A DNA stretch of 64,000 nt from Minisyncoccota bacterium (GCA_036400935.1 DASWWW010000003.1:35716-99715); one strand, 5' to 3'; counted from the stretch's first letter, positions 2,975-42,765 are shown. The notes: generated from the sequence alone by a model not told the origin. Numbers and translations: made by a program.

Positions 2975-4078
2975 CTAGATTTCCTTGAGCTTCTCTCGGA
3001 TCTTCTTCAAGATCTCGTTTGTGATCTTCGAATTCTCCTTGAGGAATTGGCGGGTAGCGTCGTATCCGCGGCCGAGGGCGATTTTTTCGCCTCCTTCAGG
3101 CTGGTACGAGTACGATGCGCCCGATTTCGCGATGATGCCGTGCGACTCGCCGAGAGCGATGATCTCGCCCTCGCGGCTGATGCCTTCGTTGTACATGAGG
3201 TCGAACTCGGTCTGCTTGAATGGGGCGGCGACCTTGTTCTTTACGACCTTAACGCGCACGCGGCCTCCGACGATCTCTTCGCCTTTTTTAATTTGCGCGA
3301 TGCGGCGGATATCGAGTCGGACAGAGGTGTAGAATTTGAGAGCCTTGCCGCCTGGAGTGGTCTCAGGATTGCCGAACATGACTCCGATCTGCATGCGGAT
3401 CTGGTTGATGAAGATGACGACGGTTTTCGACTTTGCGGTGATGGCGGTGAGCTTTCGGAGGGCCTGCGACATGAGGCGTGCCTGCTTGCCCATATGCGAC
3501 GCTCCCATGTCTCCCTCGATCTCATCCTTTGGGGTGAGGGCGGCGACGGAGTCGATGACGACTACGTCGAGCTTGCCCGATCGTACGAGCGATTCTACGA
3601 TCTCGAGAGCCTGCTCGCCGGTGTCAGGCTGCGAGATGAGGAGATCGTCGATCTTTACGCCGATCTTCTTTGAGTATTCGGGATCCATCGCGTGCTCGGC
3701 GTCGATGAACGCGCAGATGCCGCCTTGCTTCTGGGCCTCGGCGATGATGTGGAGGGAGAGGGTAGTCTTTCCGGACGATTCAGGCCCGTATATTTCGATA
3801 ATTCGGCCGCGGGGAACGCCTCCGATGCCCAAAGCGGCATCGAGTCCGATCGAGCCGGTAGGGATGGCGTTTATGTTTACCTTCGGCTTTGCGCCGAGCT
3901 TCATGATGGCTTCGTCGCCGAACTTGGTTCGGATGGCCGCGAGGGTATCGTCCATATTCGCGGGCGCCTTTTTAGATGCGACGGGCTCGTCATCGTTGGT
4001 GACTGTTCGTTCCTCGTCTTTTTCCTCGACCTTCTTAGCTGGAGCGTCCTTCAAATCCTTCTTGTCTTTTTTTGCCAT
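2975..4078 (-). CDS. recA: Recombinase RecA, with an approximately 41-aa Lys/Glu-rich N-terminal extension if translation starts at 4078.
   Basis: Walker [17 protein letters not shown], the L2 loop and the C-terminal domain are all present. The canonical RecA N-terminus would begin at the internal [13 protein letters not shown]. Confidence 0.95.
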
Positions 4079-4079
4079 G

Positions 4080-4433
4080 TTATTTATAGATTAGCTGCAA
4101 TGTCTTCTGTGCCGTCCTGCCGAAACGATCTTTTGCTTCAAGGGTCATTATATTATATCCGTACGAAAGAAGTACCTGTTCCGAGAATACGCCCGACTCG
4201 TCGGTAAATATCTTCTCGCCATTGAGGGTGAGGAAGGATATGTTGCGGGCGAATCCCTTTACCTCGACTAATGATTCGGCCAAGGTCGCCCCGTTGGCAG
4301 GGGAGTCTATGCCGATATCGGGACCCTCGATAAAGCTCATGGCCCTGAATATGCCATAGCCTATGACTAGAGCGGCTACGGCCACGATAGCCCATATCTT
4401 TATCCATCGTTTTACTTTGCGGCGGTCGGTCAT
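4080..4433 (-). CDS. Small membrane-anchored hypothetical protein, translationally coupled to recA.
   Basis: 117 aa with one N-terminal TM helix ([20 protein letters not shown]). Its stop codon abuts the recA start. Confidence 0.5.
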
Positions 4434-4473
4434 GTGCGTCTGGAATTAGTCTCTCACCGGGCTGCTAAAGGAA

Positions 4474-6774
4474 TTATAAAGACTCGTCGTCTGCCTGTGG
4501 ATTATCCGGGGCAGCGTCCGCCTTTGGGGCAGCGCTTCCTCCGCCCATTATGACCGGCCGAGGCTTCGATCCGTCAGCCTCGCCGATAACGCCTCGCTCC
4601 TGGAGGAGATCCATCAATCGGGCCGCGCGGGAATAGCCGACGCGCAGCTTTCGCTGGATATATGAGGTCGATGCTTTGCCAGCCTCTATGACGACGCGCT
4701 TGGCCTCTTCATACATGTCGTCATCGTCGCCGCTGCCTCCGTCCGCGCCCGGCTCGTCGAGAGTCGCCGAAAAGATAGCGTTGTCTACCTGGGCTGAATC
4801 GGAAAGGTTGATCTCGTCGTTGAGCTCGTCTATGTGGCTGTCTATGAGGAACTTAACGATCTTCTTCACCTCCGCTTCGGTAATGTAGGCGCACTGGATA
4901 CGGGTAGGCTTGGACATCTCTCCGCCGAGGAAGAGCATGTCTCCCTGGCCGAGGAGCTTTTCCGCGCCCGGCTGGTCGAGAATTGTTCGGGAGTCGATCT
5001 GGGAAGCCACCTGGAGGGCGAGGCGGGAAGGGATGTTCGCCTTGATGAGGCCGGTGATGACGTTAACTGACGGTCGCTGGGTCGAAAGCATGAGATGGAT
5101 GCCGACGGCTCGGGACATCTGGGCGAGGCGGACGATGCCGGCTTCGAGCTCTCGAGGGTAAGTCTGCATGATATCGGCAAGCTCGTCGATGATCACGACG
5201 ATATACGGCATAGGATCGAGGCTCTTTGTCTCCTCAGCGTCCTCGCCGTCCTTCTTTACCTTCACTTTCTTCAATGAAGGCTGGTAGATGTTCTTGTGGT
5301 ACGAGTCGATATCGCGCACGGAGTGCTCCTGGAGGAGGTTGTAGCGCCTATCCATTTCCTTTGCCGCCCATTTGAGGGAGAGGATGGCCTTCTTGGCATC
5401 GGTAATAACAGGGGTGAGGAGGTGAGGGATCTTGTTATAGAGGGTGAGCTCGACGCGCTTCGGGTCGATCATGATGAATTTGAGCTTCTCAGGGCCCATC
5501 CGGTAGAGGAGGGACACGATAAGGGCGTGGATGGTCACGGACTTACCCGAGCCGGTAGCACCCGCAATAAGAAGGTGTGGCATTTTCGCCACGTTCTGGA
5601 ACTGGGACTTGCCCGAGATGCCCTTGCCGAGGCCGACAAGGAGGGGCTTCTCCGATGTCTGAAATTCTTCTGTTGCGAAAAGAGTGCCGAGGCCGACGGT
5701 GGTCTTTGTCGTATTAGGGATTTCGATACCGACGAGCGACTTGCCCGGAATAGGGGCCTCGACGCGGATCGAAGGGGCGGCGAGGGCATAGGCAAGGTTG
5801 TCCTGAAGGGCGACGATGCGCGAGAGCTTCACGCCTTCGGCAGGCTTGAGCGCGTATCGGGTGACAGACGGTCCGATCGACACCTCGTCCATCTCGACGT
5901 CGATGCCGAAATTCGAGAGGGTCCTCTTGATGATGTTGGCGTTAGCCTTTACGTCACCGACGACAGGCTTGCCCTTGTCGCGTTCAAGAAGGGAGAGAGG
6001 GGGCGGGGTGTACTCCTTGTCAGCATCATGCTTCGAAGGCTTGATGAAGTCCTTGTCGTCCTCGCTTGCGGCGAGCTTGAGGTCTTTCGGCTTCTTCTCA
6101 GGGACCGGCTTCTCCGCTTCCGGCTCCGGCTTCTTGATCTTCTTAGGGGCCTCTTCCTCTGGAGGAAGGTTGAGCTTGAGATTCACGTCGTCCTCGATGT
6201 CTGCCTCGTCCTCTTCCTTCTCCTCCTTTTCGCGTCGGAAGCTGAAGAGGGACTTGAGGTCGAGCTCGTCATTGAATGCGATCAATATTGAAACGACCAC
6301 GAACGATGAGAGGAAGACGAGCGCGGCAGTTGTGTCGACGAGCTTTACGAAAGGGTAGGCGGTCCAAGTTCCTACGAATCCTCCCTGGCCCTTGGAGACG
6401 ATATCGATGATGCCGAGGGTGGCGATCAAGAAGAGGAGCGATCCGTAGAGCTTTGCGACATCGAACTTGCGATGGAGATTCCGCAGGAAGGTGAGGGCGA
6501 GGACGATAGAGAGGAGGGGGAGGAGGTAGTATCCGACTCCCAACATATATGTGAGGCCGACGAAGGTGTAGTGCCCGACGATGCCCGCCTTGTGCCACGG
6601 CTCGATGGCCAAGGATGTGAACACCGCGAGCACGAAAAACGCCACGGCGGCGATGCCCTGGACGGTCTCATCCGGCAGGTTCTTTATAAAGCCTTTCTTG
6701 GTTTCCTTCTTTTCCTTGCGCTCCTTTTTTATAGGTTCCTCTACCTCGTCTTCGATAATTTTCTTTTTCGCCAT
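4474..6774 (-). CDS. ftsK: DNA translocase FtsK/SpoIIIE.
   Basis: N-terminal TM helices, a Lys/Glu-rich linker, a motor domain (GATGSGKSV, VVIIDELADIM) and a C-terminal gamma winged-helix domain (YIQRKLRVGYSRAARLMDLLQERGVIG). Confidence 0.9.
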   Translation of the reverse strand: MAKKKIIEDEVEEPIKKERKEKKETKKGFIKNLPDETVQGIAAVAFFVLAVFTSLAIEPWHKAGIVGHYTFVGLTYMLGVGYYLLPLLSIVLALTFLRNLHRKFDVAKLYGSLLFLIATLGIIDIVSKGQGGFVGTWTAYPFVKLVDTTAALVFLSSFVVVSILIAFNDELDLKSLFSFRREKEEKEEDEADIEDDVNLKLNLPPEEEAPKKIKKPEPEAEKPVPEKKPKDLKLAASEDDKDFIKPSKHDADKEYTPPPLSLLERDKGKPVVGDVKANANIIKRTLSNFGIDVEMDEVSIGPSVTRYALKPAEGVKLSRIVALQDNLAYALAAPSIRVEAPIPGKSLVGIEIPNTTKTTVGLGTLFATEEFQTSEKPLLVGLGKGISGKSQFQNVAKMPHLLIAGATGSGKSVTIHALIVSLLYRMGPEKLKFIMIDPKRVELTLYNKIPHLLTPVITDAKKAILSLKWAAKEMDRRYNLLQEHSVRDIDSYHKNIYQPSLKKVKVKKDGEDAEETKSLDPMPYIVVIIDELADIMQTYPRELEAGIVRLAQMSRAVGIHLMLSTQRPSVNVITGLIKANIPSRLALQVASQIDSRTILDQPGAEKLLGQGDMLFLGGEMSKPTRIQCAYITEAEVKKIVKFLIDSHIDELNDEINLSDSAQVDNAIFSATLDEPGADGGSGDDDDMYEEAKRVVIEAGKASTSYIQRKLRVGYSRAARLMDLLQERGVIGEADGSKPRPVIMGGGSAAPKADAAPDNPQADDESL

Positions 6775-6912
6775 AATGTAGAAATTATATCACGCGGGCG
6801 CTCAATACGGGCCTATATTTCTATGTCCTATTGCACGTCCCATTGTTTCGTGTCAGAGACAGGCGAAAGACCTTTACGTCCGTTACGCGAAAATCTATAA
6901 TGGACACACCTC

Positions 6913-6941
6913 TTGACATTTTGGTATAAAGGACATATTAT
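6913..6941 (+). promoter_or_regulatory. Sigma-70-like promoter for the 7020 gene, in the divergent region shared with ftsK.
   Basis: TTGACA, a 17-nt spacer, then TATTAT, in an AT-rich intergenic region. Confidence 0.4.
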
Positions 6942-7019
6942 ATATAGGACAAAATACGCAGTATTCTAAAGGACTATTATTAAAGACATTCTCTAATTAG
7001 CCTTAATTTACAAAGCTTT

Positions 7020-7901
7020 ATGGAAGGGACACACGAGAACCAGAATCATAGCTCTCCAACGAAGACCGAACTCGGTCTCGCATCTCTCTCGCTCTTCAAC
7101 CAGAGCGCTCACTTCTCATACATCTACAAAAAGACAGAGAAGCTTGTCACGGCGATCTACATGATCACCAACTTCATCAAGGACAGCGAGCCTTTGAAAG
7201 GGAAGCTCCGCGAGAACGCCCTCAAGCTCCTCTCCCTTAACCGCGCGTTCACTACCGTATCGCTTTCTGACAGGAAAGACCTTATGAAGGAATACCAGGG
7301 CGTGGCTCTGGAGGTATCTTCTTTGGCTACCGTCGCATATCATGGGGGACTTATTTCTGAGATGAATGCGGGAGTACTCACTCGCGAATTCAACGCTCTC
7401 GTCATGCTCATCGAAAAGGACGAGAACAAGAAGGCGAACGAGCAGACGGTCATTCTCGATTCGAGCTTCTTCCAGATCGCTCCGAATGCAGCGGTCGAAA
7501 GCCGCGTCGAGCGACCGGTCTCGGCACCGACGCCAGTGCCTAATGTCCTTTATAATATCGAGCACAAGGAGCCTATTGCAGATAAAGGACATGCCGTTCC
7601 AGCTCCAGTGGCAAGCGCTCCTGCAAAGCCTGAATACCTTTCCATTAAAGACGTCCATATGGCCCCAGCTCCAGTCGTAAGAGAGAAGACTCCGCGAACG
7701 GCAGACTCAAAGGACAGCAGGCAGTCTGTCATCCTCAAAATCCTCTCAAAGAAGGGGGGCCTCAATATCAAGGACTTTACTGACGCCATAAAGGGCGTCA
7801 GCGCAAAGACCATACAGCGAGAATTGCTCTCCATGGTCGCCGCCGGTGTCCTTAAAAAGGAGGGGGAGAGGCGTTGGAGCACCTATTCCTTGGCTGACTA
7901 G
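7020..7901 (+). CDS. Hypothetical protein with a C-terminal winged-helix-like domain.
   Basis: 293 aa. The N-terminal half is helical, the linker is Pro/Ala-rich, and the C-terminus is RQSVILKILSKKGGLNIKDFTDAIKGVSAKTIQRELLSMVAAGVLKKEG. Confidence 0.5.
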   Translation: MEGTHENQNHSSPTKTELGLASLSLFNQSAHFSYIYKKTEKLVTAIYMITNFIKDSEPLKGKLRENALKLLSLNRAFTTVSLSDRKDLMKEYQGVALEVSSLATVAYHGGLISEMNAGVLTREFNALVMLIEKDENKKANEQTVILDSSFFQIAPNAAVESRVERPVSAPTPVPNVLYNIEHKEPIADKGHAVPAPVASAPAKPEYLSIKDVHMAPAPVVREKTPRTADSKDSRQSVILKILSKKGGLNIKDFTDAIKGVSAKTIQRELLSMVAAGVLKKEGERRWSTYSLAD

Positions 7902-8427
7902 ACCTCTGCCGTCCAAGCTTGCTTTTTCCCGTTTTTCGGTATAGTATAGATAGGTGGCTAATACCCATTGGAATAAGGCTTTTAAAGGGCTTTATTCTCT
8001 TATCCACATATGTTTTTGCGCCCCAGGGCTCGAAAATATATAATTATTGGGTTACGGCATTCCAGACCTATCCGTGCTCTAGACCATTGAAAACCGAATA
8101 GCGATTAAATACCGATTACTGATTCTTTCCGACGGTGCGCCGATATTCAGACGATCCCTTACATCCCTTGCCGCTATCTCCAGACTTTGTGTCGACCTAC
8201 TTGCCCGAGGTTAAAAACTCGGGCAAAGGAAAAATAAAGTTTGGTGAATAGTCGAGGAGCAGGCGTCAGGCGAAAGCTTGGCGTTGCGCTCTACACTCCC
8301 CCTGTTGCTGTCGAAGCGCAGGGAAGAGTGAAGATTATTGAAAGTTTATTCGCGGGGCAGAGAAAGCATTCATTATTAGTACAAGCCTTTCTCTGTTTCC
8401 ATCATTACTAGAAGTACACACACAATT

Positions 8428-10299
8428 ATGAAAATTTCTTCAAGGATTGTTGTTGGCGCATTGAGCCTTGCTCTCGCGTTCTCAGCATCTTCTGTTGCAT
8501 CTGCACAGGCAACCATGTCTTATGCAGACCTTATCAAGGCTTTCGTCGCAGCTGGAATCATTTCAGCAGACAAGGCAGCTCAGGCTCAGGCAATCATCTC
8601 TGCTACAGTTTCAACTTCATTCACTCGAGACCTCACTGTAGGTTCTACTGGTGCTGAGGTTACTGCTCTCCAGAATGCTATCGGAGTTACACCAGCTACT
8701 GGTTACTTCGGTTCATTGACAAAGGCAGCTGTTCAGAAGTACCAGGCTTCAAAGGGTATCTCAGCAACAGGTTACGTTGGACCGCTCACACGAGCAGCTC
8801 TCAACGCTTCTGTTACTACTACAACTGGCGGTTCAACAACAACTGGCGGTTCAACTGTTGTTAACTCAGGCGTAGAAGGTACTCTCACTGCAGATCGATT
8901 CTCGATCTCGAACACTACTGCGTACGAGGGTGATTCAATGGTTCCTGTTCTCGCTGTAAAGCTCCAGGCAAAGCTCTCTGACATCACTGTTCAGCGCATC
9001 AAGCTCGACCTCGGTGACTCAACTTCAATCTACACAAAGGTCTTCAAGACTCTCTATGTAGTTGACGATGCAGGCAACGTTGTTGCACGAGCAGATCTCA
9101 ACAGCAACACTGTTGTTAAGAACGACGGTCGCTACGAGCTCACCTTCGGTGGCTTTAGCTACAATGTCGCTAAGGACTCTTCAAAGGTTCTTACCATAAA
9201 GGGCGATGTCTACAGCTCAATCAAGACTGCAGACCAGGGTACTAAGACTATCCGACTCGCAACTGACGGCATCCGAGGTGTTGACGGTGCAGGTATCGAC
9301 CAGTACGCTGGCGGTACATCTGTAACTCAGAACATCACGATCGCTACGACTCTTGCTGACTCAGCAACTATGAGCCTCTCGACAAACTCATCGAACTACA
9401 AGACGACTGAGGTTGTTGCGGCAAACGGTTCTGAGGAGGATGAGCTCGACAAGCTTGCTGTCCTCGCGTTTGACCTCAAGGCAAACAAGGCAGACCTCGA
9501 CGTAACTGATCTCGCAGTTCGACTTACCACTTCTGGTACAGCGACAGCGACAACAGCTTACCTCTACGATGGTTCTACTCTCCTCGCAACTGAGTCTATC
9601 AACGGTGGCGTAGCAGCGTTCAACGACTCGAACGAGCTCTTCACAGTTGCAAAGGATTCTACAAAGACTCTCACTGTTAAGATCGACATCCGAGACGCAG
9701 CATCGTCGGCAACGACTTTCACCGCTCGCGTAGAGGCTGCAGATATCTCAGCTGAGAACGTTGCATCAGAGTCAAAGACAACTACAGGTTCAGCAACTGG
9801 TGAAGCTATGGTAGTTCGAAACGTTGGCCCAGTATTCTCGCTCTTGAGCAAGAACATCTCGGTTAGCGGTACAAACAACTCTGGTTCTACACTCTCGACC
9901 TCAACCATCACAGCGACATTCTCGCTCCAGGTTCAGGCTCTCGGTGGAGACATCACCTTCGGATCACAGGCTTCTGCAACTCCTATGTTCGGATTCAAGA
10001 CATACGATGTAGCAGGTTCTGAGGTCACAAGCGTATCTTCAACTACTGGTTTCACTATCCCTTCATCGGGCGTAGTAACAGCAGGCCTCACAAACAGCTT
10101 CACTGTTCAGGAGAACAACACTGTAACTCTTAACCCAATCACAGTTACGATTGCTGGTAAGGATACAGCTGGTGCTCCACGAAACGCGATTGCTGTTGCG
10201 ATTGACTCGATCAAGTGGATCGGTACAACTGCAGGCGTTCAGACTTCAAACTTCATGTCAGGTAAGACTGAGTGGAGGACAAACACACAGACTCCTTAA
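8428..10299 (+). CDS. Secreted cell-surface protein: signal peptide, peptidoglycan-binding domain (PG_binding_1-like), then repeated Ig-like Ser/Thr-rich domains. It is S-layer-like and likely abundant.
   Basis: Signal peptide MKISSRIVVGALSLALAFSASSVASA. The PG-binding motif is TGAEVTALQNAIGV...GYFGSLTKAAVQKYQASKGISATGYVGPLTRAAL. The rest is Thr/Ser-rich repeats. Codon usage (gct/gca/tct/act/gtt/ggt/cga) matches rplJ, rplL and pyk, not the bulk genome. Confidence 0.8.
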   Translation: MKISSRIVVGALSLALAFSASSVASAQATMSYADLIKAFVAAGIISADKAAQAQAIISATVSTSFTRDLTVGSTGAEVTALQNAIGVTPATGYFGSLTKAAVQKYQASKGISATGYVGPLTRAALNASVTTTTGGSTTTGGSTVVNSGVEGTLTADRFSISNTTAYEGDSMVPVLAVKLQAKLSDITVQRIKLDLGDSTSIYTKVFKTLYVVDDAGNVVARADLNSNTVVKNDGRYELTFGGFSYNVAKDSSKVLTIKGDVYSSIKTADQGTKTIRLATDGIRGVDGAGIDQYAGGTSVTQNITIATTLADSATMSLSTNSSNYKTTEVVAANGSEEDELDKLAVLAFDLKANKADLDVTDLAVRLTTSGTATATTAYLYDGSTLLATESINGGVAAFNDSNELFTVAKDSTKTLTVKIDIRDAASSATTFTARVEAADISAENVASESKTTTGSATGEAMVVRNVGPVFSLLSKNISVSGTNNSGSTLSTSTITATFSLQVQALGGDITFGSQASATPMFGFKTYDVAGSEVTSVSSTTGFTIPSSGVVTAGLTNSFTVQENNTVTLNPITVTIAGKDTAGAPRNAIAVAIDSIKWIGTTAGVQTSNFMSGKTEWRTNTQTP

Positions 10300-10355
10300 C
10301 CGGAATCTGTACGGACCGGACGCTAAGCCGCAAGGCCTAACGTAAGGTAAGTCGA

Positions 10356-10390
10356 AAAACACCCCTTCTTTCGAAGGGGTGTTTTTCGTT
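10356..10390 (+). terminator. Rho-independent terminator.
   Basis: aaaaacaccccttc-tttc-gaaggggtgttttt hairpin. Confidence 0.6.
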
Positions 10391-10410
10391 GTCTGGGATA
10401 TAATAATCGC

Positions 10411-11400
10411 ATGAAGAAAAATACAGAACAGGGCGGCTTTGTCATAAAGCTCATGATCATAGTCGTCGGCGCCTGCGTCATGTTCCTCGTGTTGGCCGTG
10501 CTCGCAAACGGCACCCTGGGATCGATTAACCTCAGCGCTCCGATAGGGGACCTGACGGAGCGAAATCCGAATACCGATTATTACGATGGCCGCATTAACC
10601 CGCTGCTCGATTTCGGCGATGGCACCGGATTCATCGACGACAGCACCCGGTCGACCCCGAATACCGATGGCAAGGGCGTTTCGGCGTACTCGAACGCCAT
10701 CAGCTTCTCTGCGGGCAATACATCGACGAGCCAGCCGCATGAGGAGTATCTCGTCTTGCGCAATTCCGGCAAGACTCCCATCGATATAACCGGCTGGGCG
10801 ATCATGAACGGAAAGGGCAGCCGTCCGATCCAAAACAGCGGCAACAGCTATTTCTATCCATCCGCTGATGTCGCCGTCATCGGGCAGGGAACCGAGTTTC
10901 TCGATCCGTCGGGCCGATCGAATATCGGCAATATCGTCCTCAAGCCGGGCGATACCGCGTACATAACAACGGGCGGTCCGTTTGCGCAGTTCCCGTTTCC
11001 GATCGCAACGTCGTTCCGCGAGAATATCTGCCAAGGGTATTTGGAGGACTATCCATTCTTCCCGCGCTTGCAGCAGTCGTGCCCGTCTATCGCGGCTGAT
11101 CCCCAGATAAGGACCGTCACCGACGAGTGCTACGACTACATCACGTCGCTCGCACGCTGCCCGAACCCTCAGCGTACCGAGCGAAAGGTCTACGACCAGC
11201 AGCCGTCGCACTGCAAGGCATTCATCGAGGCCCGCGTCGGATACAAGGCTTGCGTTGCCCAGAACGGCAACGTCTCGGGATTCTCTCTCAAGCAGTGGCG
11301 CGTATTCCTCGGCCAAAAGAGGGAGATGTGGGCGAACAGCCGCGAGACCATCACCCTGTACGACTCGAAGGGAACGGTGGTCGACCAGATCAGCTACTAG
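10411..11400 (+). CDS. Membrane-anchored lamin-tail-domain (LTD) protein.
   Basis: N-terminal TM helix followed by an LTD-like segment (HEEYLVLRNSGKTPIDITGWAIMNGKG...FYPSADVAVIGQGTEF) and a Cys-containing C-terminal part. The antisense ORF 10258-11316 is rejected. Confidence 0.65.
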   Translation: MKKNTEQGGFVIKLMIIVVGACVMFLVLAVLANGTLGSINLSAPIGDLTERNPNTDYYDGRINPLLDFGDGTGFIDDSTRSTPNTDGKGVSAYSNAISFSAGNTSTSQPHEEYLVLRNSGKTPIDITGWAIMNGKGSRPIQNSGNSYFYPSADVAVIGQGTEFLDPSGRSNIGNIVLKPGDTAYITTGGPFAQFPFPIATSFRENICQGYLEDYPFFPRLQQSCPSIAADPQIRTVTDECYDYITSLARCPNPQRTERKVYDQQPSHCKAFIEARVGYKACVAQNGNVSGFSLKQWRVFLGQKREMWANSRETITLYDSKGTVVDQISY

Positions 11401-11486
11401 TTATCAACAGGGAAGGGTGAATCTTTAGGGTTTCTTTATGGCCGTGCTGAGATGATAGCCTGATGGAAAAGGTATTTCATTCAAAT

Positions 11487-11519
11487 AAAAAGCCGCGCAC
11501 GAAGTGCGCGGCTTTTTTC
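11487..11519 (+). terminator. Rho-independent terminator.
   Basis: aaaaagccgcgcac-gaa-gtgcgcggctttttt hairpin. Confidence 0.55.
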
Positions 11520-11543
11520 TATTCACATAAAGAAAAAATAAAA

Positions 11544-12812
11544 ATGCTCAGAAAATTAGCGAAAAGCGCGACCGTTTTCTGCTTTCTGCTGGCGGCACCC
11601 GTCATGGTTTATGGCCAGGTTAAGTTCAGCGAGATCATGTATGACATTGAAGGGGCGGATACTGGAAGGGAATGGATCGAGGTCCAAAATACTGGTGATA
11701 GCGGAATAGACCTCACTGCTTGGAAACTCTTTGAGGCAAACAGCAATCATAAGATTTCAGCAATCGGCGATGCAATCCTTCCGGCCTTGGGATATGCGAT
11801 TATCACTGACAATCCGGAAAAATTCAAAGCAGACAACCCGCAGTTTTCAGGATTGCTATACGATAGCGCTTTTTCGCTCAGTAATGACGGGGAAACGATA
11901 GTTCTTCGGAACGAATCGTCGGTAGATTCTGATACGGTCTCATATACGCCGGATATGGGTGCTCTGGGCGACGGGACTTCTCTTCAAAAGATCTCTTCTG
12001 GATGGATATCGGCCGTGCCTACGCCCGGATCGCTAACTACTGCGACTGAATCCTATCATCCGACGACTCTCGATAATGATAGCGGCAACCAGGGATCAAC
12101 GACGACCTCCGATAATTCGAGCGATCAGGGCAATGCGACCGATTCGAACAGTACGAGACTCTCGGACTATTCAGCCCATTCGGCTCAGGCTGCGGCAACG
12201 GTCTCGTACGACATCCCTGAGTTTCAGGTTACGGCCGGCCGAGCGCGCCTGGGATTCGTCGGGACGCCGATCTTCTTTGAGGCCAAGATAAAGGCCGCTA
12301 AGAATCTCTTGTCGGGCGGCCTCGGTGCCGAGTGGTCCATGGGTGACGGCACCGAAAAGGCGGGCCAGACGATATATCACACATATCAGTTTGCTGGAGA
12401 TTATGTCGTCATTCTTAATGCGCAACTCGGAGGATCCTCTGCAGTGTCCAAGATTCAGGTAAAGATTGTCGATCCATCCGTTGAGATCGTTTCAAGTCCT
12501 GCCGGCTATATCGAGATATCAAACGCTTCCGACAACGAGCTCAATATCGGCGGCTGGATTCTCGAAACGGTCGGCGCCAGATCGATCCTTCCGCGAGACA
12601 TTTTGATTCAGTCTAAGTCCTCTATAAAAATCCCTGTCGGCGTTATCGGAATGAGGGAGCAGAGAGAATATGTCAGGCTGGCGAATCCCTCGGGAAAGAT
12701 TGTCGCGATTACCGGAGCAGCCTCAATGGTGGGCGAAACCCTCATTATCTTGCCTGACGGCATCGACAGCTCGGACATTATAAGCAGGCTCGAAGGCGTA
12801 ATTGTTAAATGA
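11544..12812 (+). CDS. Secreted protein with two lamin-tail-domain (LTD) modules.
   Basis: Signal peptide MLRKLAKSATVFCFLLAAPVMVYGQ. LTD 1 is FSEIMYDIEGADTGREWIEVQNTGDSGIDLTAWKL...NDGETIVLRN. LTD 2 is GYIEISNASDNELNIGGWILETVG. Start moved to ATG 11544, downstream of the terminator, instead of the tool's 11463. Confidence 0.65.
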   Translation: MLRKLAKSATVFCFLLAAPVMVYGQVKFSEIMYDIEGADTGREWIEVQNTGDSGIDLTAWKLFEANSNHKISAIGDAILPALGYAIITDNPEKFKADNPQFSGLLYDSAFSLSNDGETIVLRNESSVDSDTVSYTPDMGALGDGTSLQKISSGWISAVPTPGSLTTATESYHPTTLDNDSGNQGSTTTSDNSSDQGNATDSNSTRLSDYSAHSAQAAATVSYDIPEFQVTAGRARLGFVGTPIFFEAKIKAAKNLLSGGLGAEWSMGDGTEKAGQTIYHTYQFAGDYVVILNAQLGGSSAVSKIQVKIVDPSVEIVSSPAGYIEISNASDNELNIGGWILETVGARSILPRDILIQSKSSIKIPVGVIGMREQREYVRLANPSGKIVAITGAASMVGETLIILPDGIDSSDIISRLEGVIVK

Positions 12813-12813
12813 T

Positions 12814-15800
12814 ATGATGTACCCATGTTCGACAAGACTTTCTTTAAATTCGCGTTTGGTTTCCTTGCTATCGTCGCGATCAGCCTCTGCTTCATCTACT
12901 TTAACGGCACCGTCTCGCGATAGGGCTCTCGGCTGCTTGCCGCTATTACTTTCGAGGTTTGCCTTGCTTCTTATTGTGTGCGCAAGCCTCTTTCTGTTCG
13001 AAAAGGCTGAGGCCTATGTCATTGCCCCGCAGGAGATAATTACCGATGCTGTTTGGACAAAGGAGCTCGGTCCATACCTTGTGTTTGGTGAGTTAAAGAT
13101 TGGTTCTGGCGCGACTCTTACAATATCGCCCGGAACTGTCGTAGCTCTGCAGGGCGAGCCCATAACCATACAGGGGACGTTCCGTATTGTTGGCGATCCT
13201 TTAGACAAAATCCGGTTTGTATCAATATCAGAATCCAGTCTTCCATATCCAGAAACTATCACTCCAAGTACTGCCGTTAATCTGCAGCTCGAGGTCGATC
13301 AGGGATCTGTTTCTATTGAGAATGTTGATATTCCGGGCACGATGTTTATCGGAGCACGTGGCGGAGGGGTATCGGTGAGATCGGCGACTGCGCGCAGTAC
13401 TGGCTGGCGCCTTTCGTCGGGCGCTCGAATAGATTTCGATAACGTTCATCTGGGCAATGCGCTCATAAGGACGTTGTCGGACGGTGCTGAGCTTGCAGCG
13501 CGATTGTCATCGTTCCCTCAGGGATATTGGTCTATCAGAGACGGCGCGCGTCTGAATCTCGTCGATTGCGATCTGACCGATTTTGGCGGTTTTGAAATAT
13601 CTGGCGGTTATGGGACGTTCGAGAAGACGTCCTTTGCCGATTCATCAGGAAGCTTTGCGGTCCAAGCGGGCGGATCGGCGCTGTTTAAGGATTCTCTCAT
13701 AAGGGACTTTTCGGCAAACAAGGTTTTTGAGGTCTCCGGGCATTCAAGCGTTCTATTCGAAAGCTCGCGAGTGTCTCCAGTGCGATCTGATTTTGCTTTG
13801 CTCAAAGAAGGATCGGTTCTGGCGGCTACGTCGACGATAATAGAGAATGTTTTAAACGGAGCGATCCAGGGCGTGGGGCGGTCTAGAATTTCCCTCTATG
13901 ATACAAGCTTGCGGAATACCCTGTCGGGACAACCGAGCGCTTTTCTTGTTTTGCTGGCCGGCTCGACTTTATCGGCTGACAAATCGATCTTTTCAAGCAG
14001 TACCGGATTTGCTATCGGCACCGAGCGTGTCGACGGGTTGGGGCCGAGTGAATTAGACATACGCAATTCCGTCATTTCTGACTACGGTAATGTTGGTGTT
14101 TTTGCCGGCCATGCAACTGGTACACTGCGGGGCGTAGAAATACGGAAAGGAGGGATTGGCGTAATGTCGGATGGGTCTCATTTGGATATATCGAATTCTT
14201 CTTTCGCTGAGAGTGCGTCTGCGGCGGTAGAAAATACTAGTCCGAGCAATGCCGTTATCGCAAAGAATAATTTCTGGGGCGACGCCTCTGGCCCCGGCAA
14301 CCAGTCCTCGAATCCGGAAGGGAGAGGGGATCGAGTTTCTGAGGGCGTCATCTACTCCCCGTGGCTTTCATATGATCCCAACGGCCCTTGCTGTTCGAGC
14401 GTTTTGTTCGTGCCGGGATTTCAGGCAACCAGGCTCTATTCCTCCGAAGGAGACGGGGTACGCTTGTGGGAGCCGTCGATCGTCGGGAGGGGGGATATCA
14501 GGGAGCTTTTTCTCAATGATCGGGGACAGAGCATGCGCTCGGATATTGTCGCCAAAGAAATCATAGACGAAGCATTGGCGCCGGTAATCGGTTCCAACAT
14601 ATACAAGTCATTTATCGCTGATATGGACGCGCTTAAGTTGAGTGGCACTTTTGCAGATTGGCGCCCGTTTCCTTATGATTGGCGTTTCTCAGTCGACGAC
14701 ATTGTCGATGCGAGCGATATTGTTGATCAGATAAGAGGAATGGCTGAGAGTTCCAAAACGGGCAGGGTAACGATTATCGCGCATTCGAACGGAGGGTTGG
14801 TGGCGAAGGCCATCATGCTGCGGCTGCGAGAGCTAGGAATAGAATACCTGGTCGATACGCTCGCGCTTGTTGCTTCGCCGCAGAGCGGAACGCCTCTAGC
14901 AATCGGCGCGCTACTTCATGGGTTTGATCAGGGCATACCGCTTTTGGCGCCCACAAAGGAAATGAGGGTATTGGGTCAGAACATGCCTGGTGCATACGGA
15001 TTGCTGCCTTCGCCCGATTATTTCAGGGAGGATGGCCAAGCTCTAATATCTTTTGATGCTTCTTCGACCATGTCTTGGATGCGAAACTCGCTTTTGGCCT
15101 TTGGAGAATCGATTTTATCTTATGCATCTTTGAATGGTTTTTTGAAGGCTGTCGACGGCCGTTTTTCTCCAGAGAGTTCAGATCTGGCTTCTCCGAGCGT
15201 TTTGAATTCAGGCTTAATCGATTCCGGGCAGGAGATGCACAGGATCATTGATGGATGGGTTCCGCCCATGAATCTGAGGGTCATACAAATAGCCGGACAA
15301 GGAGAGGATACCGTCAGCGGTCTGAGATACTACGAGGGCAGAAAGAGAGGTGAGCCTGTCCTCAGGTATGACCCTCTGTTTACGTCGGCCGGCGATGAGA
15401 CTGTCGTGGCGTCGAGCGCTCTGAGCCTGTTTTCGCTACCTCAGGTTTCTAGCTATATTGTTGACTTGGCGCAGGCAAATCTCGGATTGTCGGTGCGTAG
15501 AAGCCATGCCGATATTCTCGAACTCGCTCCCGTCAGAGACCTCTTGCAGAAAATAATTGCGCGAGAGCCTGATTCTCTGCGGATAGAGGGCGTGATGTCT
15601 CTTTCGGACGATGAGCTGTCTGAGGATCAAAAGTCAGGAATTCGGCTCCTTCTTCATTCGGATGCCTTTGCGATGAGCGTCTATGATTCCTTTGGCAATC
15701 ATACAGGAATCTCTACGAGCACGGGAAGGATTGAGGAGCTGATACCGAATAGCTCATACGGAAGGTTTGGCGATGTCGCTCACGTTAGCATCAAATCGAC

Positions 15801-16425
15801 AGATTCCTCCAGTCTTCGTGTCGCCATGCAGCCGTCCTTTCATATAATGATTCGACCAGCCGATGTTGATAGGGCGGAAAGGGAGCCTTACACTCTTGAT
15901 GTCGTACGATTCAGGGGCAACGAGGTTGTCTCCTCGATCTCGTATATCGATATACCAGCGTCCGCGTCATCGATCTCGAGTCTTGATGTATCGGGGCAGG
16001 AGATTCCTTCGCAGCTGATGGTGGATCAAGACGGGGATGGCGATATCGATATCGAATTTATTCCAGGATTACGTCCAGAATCAGAGCCGGATGAAGCGGT
16101 AGCTGTGCCGGTCGAGATCTCGTCCTCTAAAAGAGGAAGTGGGAGAGCGGCCAGGATTGCGATTGGCTTGCATGATGCCGGGCATCTTGAGAGAGCTCCT
16201 CGGGATGTTGCTTCCAGTGAAATTACAGAGACACAAAAGCCTGCCGGACCTAATTTAACCTTTAGAATGGCGACAGGAAGCCCGCGGGCCAATTTGCCGA
16301 CTACTTTGGTGCAGACCGCATCGGTTTTCCAAGGAGTGGATGGCGACGGAATCAAAGTCTGGCTAAAGGCGATTATTTCTAGGCTAATTCAATTTGCTGA
16401 AAGGCTGAAGCACTGGGCATGGTAA
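12814..16425 (+). CDS. Giant 1203-aa signal-anchored protein: right-handed parallel beta-helix repeats, then an alpha/beta-hydrolase (lipase-like) domain, then a C-terminal region with a Ca-binding-like DxDGDGDID motif.
   Basis: Hydrophobic anchor LPLLLSRFALLLIVCASLFLF. Repetitive G/S/N-rich beta-helix segments. Lipase-like nucleophile elbow IIAHSNGGL (AHSxG, as in class-2 lipases) near aa 658. DQDGDGDIDIEF near the C-terminus. Its start abuts the stop of the 11544 gene. Confidence 0.7.
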   Translation: MMYPCSTRLSLNSRLVSLLSSRSASASSTLTAPSRDRALGCLPLLLSRFALLLIVCASLFLFEKAEAYVIAPQEIITDAVWTKELGPYLVFGELKIGSGATLTISPGTVVALQGEPITIQGTFRIVGDPLDKIRFVSISESSLPYPETITPSTAVNLQLEVDQGSVSIENVDIPGTMFIGARGGGVSVRSATARSTGWRLSSGARIDFDNVHLGNALIRTLSDGAELAARLSSFPQGYWSIRDGARLNLVDCDLTDFGGFEISGGYGTFEKTSFADSSGSFAVQAGGSALFKDSLIRDFSANKVFEVSGHSSVLFESSRVSPVRSDFALLKEGSVLAATSTIIENVLNGAIQGVGRSRISLYDTSLRNTLSGQPSAFLVLLAGSTLSADKSIFSSSTGFAIGTERVDGLGPSELDIRNSVISDYGNVGVFAGHATGTLRGVEIRKGGIGVMSDGSHLDISNSSFAESASAAVENTSPSNAVIAKNNFWGDASGPGNQSSNPEGRGDRVSEGVIYSPWLSYDPNGPCCSSVLFVPGFQATRLYSSEGDGVRLWEPSIVGRGDIRELFLNDRGQSMRSDIVAKEIIDEALAPVIGSNIYKSFIADMDALKLSGTFADWRPFPYDWRFSVDDIVDASDIVDQIRGMAESSKTGRVTIIAHSNGGLVAKAIMLRLRELGIEYLVDTLALVASPQSGTPLAIGALLHGFDQGIPLLAPTKEMRVLGQNMPGAYGLLPSPDYFREDGQALISFDASSTMSWMRNSLLAFGESILSYASLNGFLKAVDGRFSPESSDLASPSVLNSGLIDSGQEMHRIIDGWVPPMNLRVIQIAGQGEDTVSGLRYYEGRKRGEPVLRYDPLFTSAGDETVVASSALSLFSLPQVSSYIVDLAQANLGLSVRRSHADILELAPVRDLLQKIIAREPDSLRIEGVMSLSDDELSEDQKSGIRLLLHSDAFAMSVYDSFGNHTGISTSTGRIEELIPNSSYGRFGDVAHVSIKSTDSSSLRVAMQPSFHIMIRPADVDRAEREPYTLDVVRFRGNEVVSSISYIDIPASASSISSLDVSGQEIPSQLMVDQDGDGDIDIEFIPGLRPESEPDEAVAVPVEISSSKRGSGRAARIAIGLHDAGHLERAPRDVASSEITETQKPAGPNLTFRMATGSPRANLPTTLVQTASVFQGVDGDGIKVWLKAIISRLIQFAERLKHWAW

Positions 16426-18446: not shown

Positions 18447-18482
18447 AAAACGGCCGCGATCGTCAGATCGCGGCCTTTCGTA
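18445..18482 (+). terminator. Rho-independent terminator.
   Basis: aaaaaacggccgcgatc-gtca-gatcgcggcctttcg hairpin. Confidence 0.55.
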
Positions 18483-18789
18483 TCAGAAGCTAGCTGCTAT
18501 GAAAGTGACGGTTGCGGCCGATCGCCGAACGCCGAGAAAAGGGGTTGTGAGTCTCTTGGCCTCCACGCCGACGAAGGGCGCGGCGAGCCGCGTGATTGAG
18601 CGGGGCCGGCGTATTGGTGGCCGACGTATTGCGAGCAAATGACTTTTTGGCCATAGGGGTGAGCAAGCTACTTAACCAGCATTATGTATGGTCCTTTCAT
18701 CCGGGACCGTGTACGGATTCATTTCCCAGTATATCTAGGGCGCCACGCGTGTCAAAGCTTGAAAAGGGGACAGGTTTCTGATAGTCTCT

Positions 18790-18950
18790 ATCTCGAAAGG
18801 CCGGAGAAAGTAGGTGGCCCTATACAAGGCCATAATCCTCGAAAGAGGCACTCCTACTGAGGTCGAAACGCCAAAGCGCGCAAGCGCCGAAGCGTCTCTA
18901 CTCCACCTGCCGAAAGGCAGCCTTTTATTTATCAGAGGTAAGTTGAAATA
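18790..18950 (+). promoter_or_regulatory. Candidate ribosomal-protein L10 leader (autoregulatory structured 5'UTR) upstream of rplJ.
   Basis: Sits directly upstream of rplJ within a roughly 470-nt non-coding gap. Several complementary segments are visible (ggccggag...ctccacctgccgaaaggcagcc). No model was run. Confidence 0.25.
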
Positions 18951-18953
18951 TAC

Positions 18954-22649: not shown

Positions 22650-23009
22650 TACTTCTACCTCCAAATGGTTATTAATTCTCATCTAGCGCGAACGAAATAA
22701 AGGCCATTCAGTTGGCTATATTACGTTTCGCTCGAGAGAGCGATTTCTTTTTTAAGGGGGTATGTTGTTTCTTCGACAATAGAACCCCACCGCATGAGTC
22801 TTTCGAGTCAGTCCTACAAGGGACCGATGAGATGGTCTTTTCAAGCATGCAGGTGACTGCAATGATCTATAGATGGTTATTGCAAAACCTACTTTTTTCC
22901 AGGAAAGAAAAAGTAGAACAGGTAAATTAAAGTATTGAATTTCTGTTCGTTGTAAGCGAACAGGGATCATTGAGAGAAATTAGTTTAGTGGTTTTTAAAT
23001 TTCCTAATA

Positions 23010-26300
<3,291 letters not shown>

Positions 26301-26412
26301 TTATTAGGAAATTTATGAATCACACATGCCGTTCGAAAGGACAGCGGTGGTCTAGTTTCCTCAACTTTATTTACTTGAAATTACATATTTCCGAAAAACA
26401 ACATGATTGAGC

Positions 26413-26534
26413 TCTCTGTTCTGGTGATTCAACGCGATGGAACCACCTCTTCCCATCCCGAACAGAGAAGTTAAACGTCGTAGTGCCGATGATAGTCCTA
26501 CAGGGCGAAAGTAGGTAGTCGCCAGTACAGAGAG
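26413..26534 (+). rRNA. rrf: 5S ribosomal RNA.
   Basis: cccatcccgaacagagaagttaaac...gccgatgatagt...agtaggtagtcgcc. The terminal helix is ctctctgttc / acagagag. Confidence 0.85.
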
Positions 26535-40757: not shown

Positions 40758-41099
40758 TGTACTTACCTCTGAAAAACTCAGGTTTGAGGAAAAAAGACTT
40801 CGAAAGATGTCCTTTTTCTTTAAGGGGGACGGCAACTGTCGGACTTTGAAATAATTATTGTTATATAAGATTGAGAACGTGCAGAAGAGAGACTGGTTCA
40901 AGTTTCTTTGAATGTACGAGTCCAAATCTTTGAGTATGTTGGATACTGCGATCGGGTCAAAATTCGGACCAAGAGCAGATAATAGGATTGTGGAGGCGGG
41001 AAAGCACCCGTGAATCTCCCAGAGCAAAATATGCAGCAGTTCATACTGTCGTCTATTTTGTTCCGTTCGCTTTGTGCGCTCTTCGGAGCTTCAAAGTTT

Positions 41100-42592
41100 A
41101 TATTAAGAGTTTGATCCTAGCTCAGGATGAACGCTGGCGGCGTGGATAAGTCATGCAAGTCAAGGGGGCCGCAAGGCAACCGGCAGACGAGGTAGTAATA
41201 AGTAGGTACGAAACCAAAAGTCATGAATAGCCCACCGAAAGGTGGGGTAATACATGATAGTCCCTCCGGGGTAAAGATTTATCGCTTTTGGATCGGCCTG
41301 CTCGGTATCAGCTAGTTGGTGAGGTAAAAGCTCACCAAGGCTATGACGCCTAGGGGACCTGAGAGGGTGACCCCCACCGATGGAACTGAGACACGGTCCA
41401 TACACCTACGGGTGGCTGCAGACGAGAATATTCGACAATGGACGAAAGTCTGATCGAGCGACGCCGCGTGCAGGATGAAGTCCTTCGGGACGTAAACTGC
41501 TTTTATTGGGGAGGAAGTTTATTGACGTTACCCATTGAATAAGAGGTTGCTAAACTCGTGCCAGCAGCAGCGGTAATACGAGTGCCTCAAGCGTTATCCG
41601 GAATCATTGGGCGTAAAGGATGTGTAGGTGGCCGCATTAGTCTTTTGTTAAATTTCCCGGCTTAACTGGGAACCTGCAGAAGAAACGGTGCGGCTAGAGG
41701 ATGCAAGGGGTCTGCGGAACTCATAGTGTAGCGGTGAAATGCGTTGATATTATGGGGAACACCAAAAGCGAAGGCAGCAGACTGGGGCACTCCTGACACT
41801 GAAACATGAAAGCGTGGGTAGCGAATGGGATTAGATACCCCAGTAGTCCACGCCCTAAACGATGACAACTAGCTATTTCGAGTATCGACCCTCGGAGTGG
41901 CGTAGCTAACGCGTTAAGTTGTCCGCCTGGGTAGTACGACCGCAAGGTTAAAACTCAAAGGAATAGACGGGGACTCGCACAAGCAGAGGATCATGTGGTT
42001 TAATTCGATGGTAAACGAAGAACCTTACCAGGGTTAGAAATGTAGCTGAAGACAAGCAGAAACGTTTGTCGCCGCAAGGCAGTTACACAGGTGCTGCATG
42101 GCCGTCGTCAGTTCGTGGTTTGAATTGTTCCCTTCAGTGGGGTAACGAACGCAACCCTCATTGCCTGTTACAAGTGTCAGGCGAGACTGCCCAGCTTTTT
42201 GAGCACAAATCGAAAGATTTGCGAGCAAGAAGCTGGGAGGAAGGTGAGGATGACGCCAGGTCAGCATGGCCCTCTGATACCCTGGGCTACACACGTGATA
42301 CAATGGTGCATACAACGCGACGCGACGAGGAAACTCTGAGCAAATCGTAATAAAGTGCACCCTAGTTCGGATAGGAGTCTGCAACTCGACTCCTTGAAGC
42401 TGGATTTGCTAGTAATCTCGGGTCAGCCATACCGAGGTGAATACGTTCTCGAGTCTTGTACTCACCGCCCGTCAACTCAAGGGAGTTGGGAGTGCCCGAA
42501 GTCTGCGCCTGTCGCGGCCTAAGGCAAGCTCAATGACAGGGAGTAAGTCGTAACAAGGCACGGGTAGCGGAAGCTGCTCGTGGATTATTTCA
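41100..42592 (+). rRNA. rrs: 16S ribosomal RNA, unlinked from 23S-5S. Its 3' tail lacks the anti-Shine-Dalgarno CCUCC.
   Basis: The 5' end is agagtttgatcctagctcaggatgaacgctggcggcg. Internal blocks gtgccagcagcagcggtaatac and gtcgtaacaagg are present. The 3' end reads ...ggaagctgctcgtggattatttc, where CACCUCCUU is expected. Confidence 0.9.
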
Positions 42593-42765
42593 AGTGAAAA
42601 CACGCTTCTTATCTACGGATAAGAGCTGATAGAGTCGATCGTTTCAATAACGGGTTCGCGAGACACCTAAATCTCGCTGGAATCAGGGAAGACTGATAGA
42701 AGTCCGGTAGCCTTTATGGAGACCGAGATTAGAACGGGACAAAATAGAAGACAGTATACATGAAA

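Follow-up and report, generated by a model that had tools for sequence, protein, structure and literature searches.

A candidate S-layer protein gene of Paceibacteria with predicted tandem promoters, an invariant DnaA-box-like 9-mer and a conserved structured leader

Cells of the candidate phyla radiation (CPR, or Patescibacteria) bear a p6 S-layer of 13-nm hexagonal pyramids, according to the supplement of the SymProFold preprint (bioRxiv 10.1101/2024.05.28.596244), which predicts two Patescibacterial classes of S-layer protein, one with six immunoglobulin-like (Ig-like) domains and a short one (643-727 aa) with three. Here we compare with these predictions a gene for a 623-aa secreted protein and the long non-coding region in front of it, together at 7902-10299 on the plus strand of a 64,000-nt stretch of Minisyncoccota DNA (GCA_036400935.1 DASWWW010000003.1:35716-99715), the whole of which we call the window. 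The window genome belongs to the Paceibacteria (CPR/Patescibacteria); the nearest relatives of all genes examined are in metagenome-assembled genomes (MAGs) of Paceibacterota, Parcubacteria, Taylorbacteria or Zambryskibacteria. A model's reading of the DNA without database searches (the sequence-only reading) had named the gene a strong candidate for the organism's major envelope or S-layer protein. That proposal is supported but unproven: architecture and expression design fit the predicted three-Ig class and the hallmarks described in lactobacilli.

The preprint's short class includes proteins from Yanofskybacteria (GMX57981.1, 692 aa), Vogelbacteria (A0A1G2QP48, 643 aa) and Nealsonbacteria DGGOD1a (UMX47672.1, 727 aa), and its modelled lattice, a closed p6 array of 13.5 nm, agrees with the 13-nm spacing seen by cryo-electron tomography (cryo-ET) (10.1101/2024.05.28.596244). 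Cryo-electron microscopy of Nealsonbacteria DGGOD1a has shown an apparent S-layer. The leader, promoters and codon bias of the genes are not described in the preprint. Kuroda et al. (2024; PMC10936435) found secreted proteins with a peptidoglycan-binding domain (PGBD) among the five most transcribed signal-peptide genes in three Paceibacteria. One of these top five, PMX_810_sub_00350 (2079 bp, 692 aa; signal peptide and PGBD), appears from its matching length to be the preprint's Yanofskybacteria member.

S-layer expression in lactobacilli has four hallmarks, namely a long structured 5' untranslated region (UTR), biased codons, strong promoters and the use of two promoters (PMC3666127), and at sequence level all four are found at the window locus. 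The slpA genes of Lactobacillus acidophilus and L. brevis (PMC3666127) share with it tandem promoters, a long structured 5' UTR, biased codons, a monocistronic mRNA (the promoters and transcript being predicted here) and a two-part protein for wall binding and assembly; their UTR is credited with mRNA half-lives of 14-15 min. However, proteins and leaders are unrelated in sequence, and anchoring is by SLAP or teichoic-acid-binding regions there and by PG_binding_1 here. The window UTR is far longer, carries invariant loop motifs and belongs to a host without an anti-Shine-Dalgarno (anti-SD) sequence, and no DnaA-box-like operator has been described for Lactobacillus S-layer genes. The slpA gene of Thermus thermophilus is likewise an S-layer gene with a conserved 5' UTR, which, in a 1997 study by Fernandez-Herrero and colleagues, was reportedly bound by SlpA itself, with a repressor, SlrA, in addition; there the UTR is said to be an operator for post-transcriptional autoregulation beside a dedicated transcription factor. 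It has no sequence relationship to the window gene.

The explanation that best accommodates the locus as a whole, its promoters, box and UTR included, is that the gene encodes the main wall-anchored surface-coat (S-layer) protein of the organism, which we hold to be probable, if not secure. The S-layer idea itself is not new: the window protein is a new member of the class already proposed in the preprint (10.1101/2024.05.28.596244). The protein is laid out as follows.

8428-10299, plus strand: coding sequence (CDS) of the surface protein, 623 aa
8428-8505, plus strand: signal peptide, part of the CDS
To about 8808, plus strand: helices and PG_binding_1, then a Thr/Gly linker
8869-9363, plus strand: beta-sandwich domain D1, part of the CDS
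9364-9825, plus strand: beta-sandwich domain D2, part of the CDS
9826-10296, plus strand: beta-sandwich domain D3, part of the CDS

The open reading frame (ORF) exists as the sequence-only reading described it, and its signal peptide and PG_binding_1-like module were correctly recognized. The signal peptide (MKISSRIVVGALSLALAFSASSVASA, 26 aa, followed by Q) is of the typical Sec type with cleavage after VASA; A26 and Q27 are nearly invariant in 50 aligned homologues, where the AXA site followed by Q is conserved, and a signal peptide opens the protein in 69/69 orthologues examined. The sole Pfam match is PG_binding_1 (PF01471; E 3e-10, above the gathering score), a three-helix PGBD fold at residues about 68-127, of the same fold and sequence family as the modules of SleB, Zn DD-peptidase and phage endolysins. 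In those enzymes the PGBD targets a catalytic domain, whereas the window protein has none and carries three beta-sandwich domains as cargo. SLH repeats gave no match in Pfam at E<=1, so the protein is not of the SLH-domain S-layer type.

An AlphaFold2 model made from 50 homologues (mean pLDDT 82) shows, in order, two short helices, the PGBD, a disordered Thr/Gly linker (130-146) and three beta-sandwich domains (roughly aa 148-312, 313-466 and 467-623). The expectation of at least two repeats of a beta-rich domain was borne out by profile-profile comparison, in which D1 and D2 are homologous (hhalign probability 97.8%, E 8e-13) and D3 has no detectable sequence relation to either. A fold search, which the sequence-only reading had suggested, returned strings of Ig-like domains from adhesins, pilins and integrin legs (Foldseek), that is, generic Ig-like, cohesin-like and pilin-like modules, with no solved S-layer protein among the structural neighbours.

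More than 741 homologues, nearly all of 617-690 aa, occur in Paceibacterota, Taylor-, Zambryski-, Vogel- and Nomurabacteria, and at least 478 species-representative genomes carry a relative of the protein. Two of the features expected of an S-layer protein, secretion and an envelope-anchoring module, are present as signal peptide and PGBD. The architecture is that of the short three-Ig class as well: a signal peptide, three Ig-like beta-sandwiches, 623 aa (643-727 aa in the preprint's members) and a host among the Paceibacteria, and the window protein's family has a Vogelbacteria member (locus L065). L065 is not the preprint's Vogelbacteria protein, as it encodes 715 aa, not 643, and no exact entry was found. 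The exact 623-aa sequence is itself absent from a collection of 15 billion proteins (best homologue, 88% identical), and DNA identical to window 3020-11901, with the 623-aa gene called, is present in the Logan assemblies of SRR11449182 and SRR11449183; the adjacent gene is also annotated in an NCBI Paceibacterota MAG. The absence looks like a database gap rather than biology.

Codon choice was said to differ sharply from that of the GC3-rich bulk genes, and it does: GC at third codon positions (GC3) is 0.45, against about 0.74 in bulk window genes. Four-fold boxes turn to T/A endings (gene vs bulk: GGT 0.62 vs 0.06, GTT 0.62 vs 0.08, ACT 0.51 vs 0.15, GCA+GCT 0.88 vs 0.31, CGA 0.67 vs 0.17), two-fold codons hold more strictly to the genome's own preferred C/G endings (TTC 0.90, TAC 0.87, AAC 0.93, AAG 0.97, CAG 1.0), and GCC, TCC, GTG, GGG and CCC do not occur at all. 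By codon adaptation index (CAI) against the ribosomal-protein genes rplJ+rplL, a check that had been proposed, the gene ranks first against 40 other genes (0.681; recA 0.677, pyk 0.669). It is also the extreme point on axis 1 of a principal component analysis (PCA) of relative synonymous codon usage, followed by rplL, pyk, rplJ and recA. Its grouping with rplJ, rplL and pyk thus stands in both analyses, but these are not the only other genes with the bias, as had been claimed: recA shares it, and the ribosomal genes share part of it, favouring GTA/GTC and GGA/GGC, not GTT/GGT.

The same split appears in 69 orthologous loci, from genomes of 31-58% GC, when each gene is set against the ORFs of its own 6-kb flanks. 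Two-fold Y codons end in C at 0.64 vs 0.40 in the flanks and two-fold R codons in G at 0.63 vs 0.40 (69/69 orthologues); four-fold codons end in T at 0.46 vs 0.33 (higher in 66/69) and in G at 0.07 vs 0.16 (lower in 69/69), and C is lower in 63/69. Opposite GC shifts in two-fold and four-fold codons are a classical signature of translational selection. Because GC rises in one codon class and falls in the other in every lineage, the bias indicates translational selection, not horizontal transfer. The very high expression that the sequence-only reading drew from the codons is strongly supported by this two-directional shift, as far as codon usage can tell. High abundance would agree with indirect signs: the top CAI, the extreme PCA position, the signature in 69/69 orthologues and the high transcription of PGBD proteins in three other Paceibacteria.

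The leader, too, sets the gene apart as had been noticed. The non-coding region 7902-8427 is 526 nt long, against a median gap of 59 nt in the window; across 69 loci the median upstream gap is 389 nt, the median of 523 other gaps being 79 nt, and in 43/69 no other gap is longer. Among the window, L001 and L002 the 526 nt are 89% identical, while the L002 genome has 43% GC and its protein is only 77% identical, and nhmmer finds full-length leader homology in 13 loci. Coding potential was rejected, since the leader has no conserved ORF (longest ATG ORF, 26 aa in the window and 17 aa in L001). From this conservation, the region is most likely a deeply conserved control module, not a spacer, with the following elements around the CDS.

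7020-7901, plus strand: gene of a syntenic 293-aa protein, a candidate nucleic-acid-binding partner or regulator
7919-7947, plus strand: predicted promoter P1; -35 TTGCTT (7919-7924), 17-nt spacer, -10 TAGTAT (7942-7947)
8000-8008, plus strand: DnaA-box consensus TTATCCACA, between P1 and P2
8016-8044, plus strand: predicted promoter P2; -35 TTGCGC (8016-8021), 17-nt spacer, -10 TATAAT (8039-8044)
10363-10389, plus strand: intrinsic terminator, CCCTTCTTTCGAAGGGG then TGTTTTTCGT, predicted to end a monocistronic mRNA

Both promoters have what is expected of the sigma-70 type, with the TTG of the -35, the TA...T of the -10 and a spacing of 17+-1 nt conserved across species; they would start transcription at about 7954 (P1) and 8051 (P2). 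In the close-clade alignment (A3, 14 sequences), P1 columns T18, T19, G20, T41, A42 and T46 and P2 -10 columns T138, A139, T140, A141 and T143 are invariant. Promoter and box layout, like the UTR lengths given below, was scored over 70 loci. A P1-like pair lies 5' of the box in 70/70 (mean score 8.2/12; >=9 in 28/70, vs 4.4% of random windows), and P2 has a mean score of 9.06/12 (>=9 in 51/70, vs 2.7% of random 60-nt windows). The end of the P1 -10 is 5-52 nt from the box, and the P2 -35 begins 6-9 nt after it (median 8) in 70/70 loci. A simple promoter scan missed P1 because its -35 matches only 3/6. A third promoter at TTGAAA (8088) was rejected, there being no conserved -10 at 16-18 nt in A3. 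Between the P1 start and the box, a 13-bp hairpin (GGAAUAAGGCUUUUAAAGGGCUUUAUUCU) at 7970-7998 is kept, with sequence changes, in related clade leaders. In P1 transcripts, CCAC of the box might base-pair with GGUGG (7953-7957); as both are invariant, there is no covariation signal.

The copy of the box at 8000-8008 is the only exact one in the 64-kb window. Of the orthologous loci, 64/69 have an exact, sense copy no more than 800 nt upstream, and five are one mismatch off (TTTTCCACA or CTATCCACA). Positions 2 and 4-9 never change in 70/70 loci, the bases on either side do, and the site has neither a dyad nor a repeat partner. The box/promoter layout is alike in all clades, even where the remaining leader cannot be aligned: the box lies just 3' of, or over, the P1 start (about +10 to +50), and its centre is near -49 of P2. 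Judging from its form, the box is most likely the target of a DNA-binding protein that acts as a monomer.

For such a protein DnaA is the best candidate and the most economical one, by analogy with E. coli, where TTATCCACA between dnaAp1 and dnaAp2 mediates DnaA repression of both (PMC8203912). The identical 9-mer thus lies between two tandem promoters of one gene in both cases, but the gene regulated is dnaA there and a surface-protein gene here, where DnaA binding would be by inference, and the rigid spacing to P2 across 70 species distinguishes the window family from the E. coli region. Three of the five box variants (TTTTCCACA) still fit TT(A/T)TNCACA. This is said to be the classical DnaA-box consensus, as given by Schaper and Messer in 1995.

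The box could instead be bound by the product of the gene directly upstream, or by another dedicated regulator of a local surface-protein regulon, which we regard as possible rather than probable. That product combines an Avd/S23-like four-helix bundle (aa 30-141), a disordered linker and a C-terminal winged helix-turn-helix (wHTH; aa 231-291), and its gene directly precedes the surface-protein gene in 69/69 loci; in scans of 80 related loci, recA, ftsK and the wHTH gene lie upstream in 73-77. Exact plus-strand boxes also recur in the 1.5 kb that follow the gene (18 boxes over 17 loci vs 0.4 expected by chance), often after the terminator and ahead of the next surface-protein gene. In the window, a one-mismatch box, TTATCAACA, stands at 11401, right after the stop codon of LTD1 and ahead of the second LTD gene (LTD2), and its L001 counterpart is an exact TTATCCACA. 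The downstream boxes lack the rigid box-to-promoter spacing seen at P2. However, the site is a perfect 9-mer that is asymmetric, has no dyad and stands between variable flanks, as is typical where DnaA domain IV binds as a monomer and unlike what most wHTH dimers recognize. In addition, the TTTTCCACA variants keep to the DnaA consensus, and elsewhere in these genomes the word is commoner than expected, with 56 copies in 905 kb and a rank of 2-3 among 1680 9-mers of the same composition. In one clade, minus-strand exact copies of TTATCCACA lie in or beside an IS200-like Y1 transposase ORF immediately downstream of the surface-protein gene (L023, 8038-8760; also L022, L024, L025, L038 and L063).

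From P2 onward the leader would be transcribed as a UTR with these parts.

8051-8427, plus strand: structured 5' UTR of unusual length, about 376 nt if started at P2 and about 473 nt if started at P1
8085-8104, plus strand: conserved block TTGAAAACCGAATAGCGAT, apparently unpaired; nearly invariant in A3, individual folds inconsistent here
8174-8253, plus strand: UTR domain B, with outer helix CUAU/AUAG, second covarying helix, internal loop and apical variable hairpin
8256-8292, plus strand: hairpin C1, variable, absent in two relatives (14 individual folds)
8295-8329, plus strand: hairpin C2, with conserved apical loop UGUCGAA at 8309-8315 (14 individual folds)
8354-8399, plus strand: hairpin D, a long stem with conserved loop UUAnnAnU at 8373-8380
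8400-8427, plus strand: pre-start region CATCATTACTAGAAGTACACACACAATT, conserved, CA-rich, unstructured, without a Shine-Dalgarno (SD) sequence

The leader had been likened to long S-layer 5' UTRs, and rightly so, a structured UTR such as this one of 376 nt being one of the four lactobacillar hallmarks (PMC3666127). Its minimum free energy is -121 kcal/mol (z = -3.98; 0/100 shuffles as stable). The inferred UTR from P2 is 107-485 nt long over the 70 loci (median 245). Domain B takes the same three-tier shape in 14/14 sequences folded independently, with UGUCGA (8190-8195) on one side of its internal loop and AAAAAUAAA on the other. On a plain, unfitted MAFFT alignment (A7), 85% of its cells are paired and 11/19 pairs change on both sides, for a covariation score of 0.32 vs 0.18+-0.02 in shuffled alignments (0/500) and 0.05-0.18 in slid controls. 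Its apical hairpin (8201-8226; 8201-8209 paired with 8218-8226, 9 bp) is the one that the sequence-only reading quoted. The hairpin is real, with three compensatory pair changes in L002 (CCCG/CGGG to TTGA/TCAG), but its 3' arm, ctcgggcaaag, is one base longer than was quoted. Hairpin D was scored on a model-fitted alignment, a choice that favours structure: 13/14 pairs change on both sides, and the covariation score is 0.49 vs 0.21+-0.03 shuffled (0/500), with slid controls at 0.16-0.19. A model of this hairpin (R1) matches 14/14 clade members (E 6e-17 to 3e-6) and nothing else in 1.02 Mb.

Because R1 found no members outside the 14-sequence clade, the UTR sequence is, on present comparison, clade-specific; only the box, tandem promoters, long UTR and GUCGA-loop hairpins extend beyond that clade. 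The UTRs of 41/70 loci contain UGUCGA, a 10.8-fold enrichment, in 51 sense vs 3 antisense copies that mostly lie in hairpin loops. In the window it occurs at 8190-8195 and at 8309-8314, in the C2 loop, whose columns G409, T410, C411, G412 and A413 are invariant in A3. In distant clades with otherwise unalignable UTRs it is again found in a hairpin loop, for example GUUUCU-UGUCGAUUAC-AGAAAC. Pairing between UCGAC of the domain-B copy and GUCGA of the C2 loop would be possible; neither sequence varies, which makes covariation uninformative here. The 28 nt just ahead of the ATG (CAUCAUUACUAGAAGUACACACACAAUU) hardly vary in A3 or in a further alignment (A5), are unpaired in all folds and may serve as a ribosome landing site. 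That they contain no SD sequence was rejected as a special feature of this gene: it is a genome trait, because the 16S 3' end (window 42575-42595) reads GGAUUAUUUCAAGU, without a CCUCC anti-SD, and almost no window gene has an SD.

Such a leader may do more than stabilize the mRNA. It could be a cis-regulatory RNA that senses a metabolite, in the manner of a riboswitch, or a protein, as an autoregulatory operator to which the surface protein or some other factor binds; we regard this, too, as possible rather than probable. Its invariant unpaired motifs (UGUCGA in internal and apical loops, UUAnnAnU and TTGAAAACCGAATAGCGAT) exceed the needs of stability, and the GUCGA-loop hairpins recur across clades whose UTRs otherwise do not align. 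Against this, UTR length and most of its sequence vary between clades, and the folds show no alternative terminator/antiterminator or start-sequestering pairing, the start region being unpaired in all of them. A known RNA family for the leader was rejected as well: Rfam 15 gave nothing in 7850-8500 at the gathering threshold, and at E<=5 one chance match to snoZ30 on the minus strand. Putting the two levels of control together, we tentatively propose, as less likely than the coat-protein role itself, that DnaA at the single box between the promoters gates transcription of the coat gene and that the undescribed GUCGA-loop 5' UTR adds post-transcriptional control.

A different question is whether the abundant protein forms a crystalline layer at all. 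It might be a peptidoglycan-anchored adhesin or host-attachment protein, as Kuroda et al. (PMC10936435) propose for PGBD proteins, with no crystalline S-layer. The top structural matches would suit this: PrgB Ig domains (E 3.6e-11), the Saf pilus, AgI/II C-terminal domains, RrgB and BcpA; in addition, NCBI names one homologue 'trimeric autotransporter adhesin'. We nevertheless think it unlikely, as nearly all orthologs examined share length, architecture, strict synteny and an extreme expression signature, which a housekeeping coat fits better, and modelling of the look-alike proteins in the preprint yields a closed p6 lattice at the cryo-ET spacing. Adhesin and S-layer roles are compatible, not exclusive.

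Several points nonetheless weigh against our preferred reading of the locus. The likeness to GMX57981.1, A0A1G2QP48 and UMX47672.1 is one of taxon, size and architecture, not of sequence alignment, and the lattice was modelled for the preprint's proteins only, so that lattice formation by the window protein would follow by analogy. Between candidate phyla, family members keep 40-55% identity, a higher level than in typical S-layer proteins, and abundance in the window organism is deduced from codon usage and from other Paceibacteria. The codon pattern is shared only partly by rplJ and rplL, the sole ribosomal-protein reference genes in the CAI. The P1 -35 agrees with the consensus at just 3/6 positions in the window, and both start sites were read off the hexamers alone. 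Finally, neither the window nor the 80 related loci showed a dnaA signature, and the wHTH gene, with its strict synteny, encodes a second candidate for binding the box.

Recent horizontal acquisition of a surface-protein island, which the sequence-only reading had named as a condition that would overturn its expression claim, is very improbable as the cause of the atypical codons and was rejected: the GC3 difference, the lower GC of the 8-16 kb stretch of the window and the foreign-looking composition of the adjacent LTD2 and 1207-aa genes would suit it, but a donor of other GC cannot shift two-fold codons to the genome's own C/G endings and four-fold codons to T/A, the split recurs in all 69 orthologues across 31-58% GC, and the conserved chromosomal position beside recA, ftsK and the wHTH gene counts against transfer. 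Least probable of all, and likewise rejected, is a replication origin or DnaA-titration site unrelated to the downstream gene, for although a perfect DnaA-box consensus lies in a long conserved intergenic region, it is a single box with no further one-mismatch copies in the leader, cumulative GC skew climbs monotonically over the window with no switch, the scans mentioned above found no dnaA nearby, and box strand and spacing to the -35/-10 pair are fixed in 70/70 loci.

Other features of the window touch on these subjects. LTD2 and the 1207-aa ORF after it (window 11463-16425) have AT-shifted two-fold codons (TTT, TAT, AAT, GAT, CAT), the lowest CAI in the window and a place at the opposite PCA end from the surface-protein gene; the pair may represent a surface-protein island that was gained horizontally or is weakly expressed. 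The 1207-aa protein seems to consist of a beta-helix region and, after it, an LCAT/lipase-like GxSxG hydrolase; it was rejected as a member of the preprint's six-Ig class, having no Ig string and foreign-like codons. A terminator-like perfect hairpin (aaaaagccgcgcacgaagtgcgcggctttttt) at about 11487-11516 lies just before the probable true LTD2 start at 11544, which opens a signal peptide (MLRKLAKS); this arrangement (11401-11544) may be an attenuator. In several window genes, a mere 0-13 nt separate a TATAAT-like hexamer from the ATG (for LTD1, TATAAT at 10399-10404 and ATG at 10411), which suggests leaderless or very short-leader mRNAs, unlike the 376-nt UTR of the surface-protein gene. Long non-coding stretches also precede other biased genes, with 507 nt before rplJ (18447-18953) and 591 nt, including tRNA-Ile, before pyk (43460-44050); no L10 leader was matched by Rfam at the gathering threshold in the window. 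The 23S gene (in the region 23002-26527, with a group I intron at 25755-26010) has the 5S alongside, and the 16S is unlinked, 15 kb further downstream and followed by tRNA-Ile(GAT) (within 41099-43506). Unlinked rRNA genes in such an order are typical of CPR genomes.

If the gene does encode the coat protein, Sec would export it with cleavage of the signal peptide after Ala26, the N-terminal PG_binding_1 would hold it on the peptidoglycan, and the Thr/Gly linker would project the three Ig-like beta-sandwich domains outward, where they would probably assemble into the hexagonal CPR S-layer, a step suggested by the preprint's modelling of look-alike proteins. P1 and P2 would drive a monocistronic mRNA ending at the intrinsic terminator, and codons under translational selection would help to give very high output. 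The 376-473-nt 5' UTR, with its at least four conserved stem-loop domains, may protect the message from decay, as in known S-layer mRNAs, and may present an unstructured CA-rich start region to ribosomes in an organism without SD pairing. The box-binding protein, with DnaA the best candidate, would throttle or switch both promoters, as at the dnaAp1/dnaAp2 pair of E. coli; DnaA on the box would obstruct P1, and its action on P2 would be exerted from about -49. Transcription could thereby be tuned to the cell cycle, coupling coat synthesis to the replication cycle in cells with very few regulators, and the UTR might add post-transcriptional control through the syntenic Avd-like/wHTH protein or the coat protein itself. 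In the literature we found no description of the family-wide translational-selection signature, of tandem promoters with an invariant box, of a GUCGA-loop UTR or of the obligatory wHTH neighbour, and no paper combining TTATCCACA with an S-layer.

The CPR/Patescibacteria make up a large share of bacterial diversity, and their envelope is poorly understood: an S-layer has been seen by cryo-ET, and its protein has only been predicted. The locus offers independent support for that prediction from DNA alone, through a codon signature found in 69 species and an expression architecture of the S-layer type, which together point to one family as the coat protein in the species examined. The promoters, box, covarying UTR and wHTH gene form a compact, experimentally testable module in organisms with hardly any known promoter, operator or regulatory RNA, and promoter and UTR could become strong expression parts for the few cultivable CPR systems. 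If DnaA does bind the box, it would provide a simple link between replication and surface growth in minimal cells.

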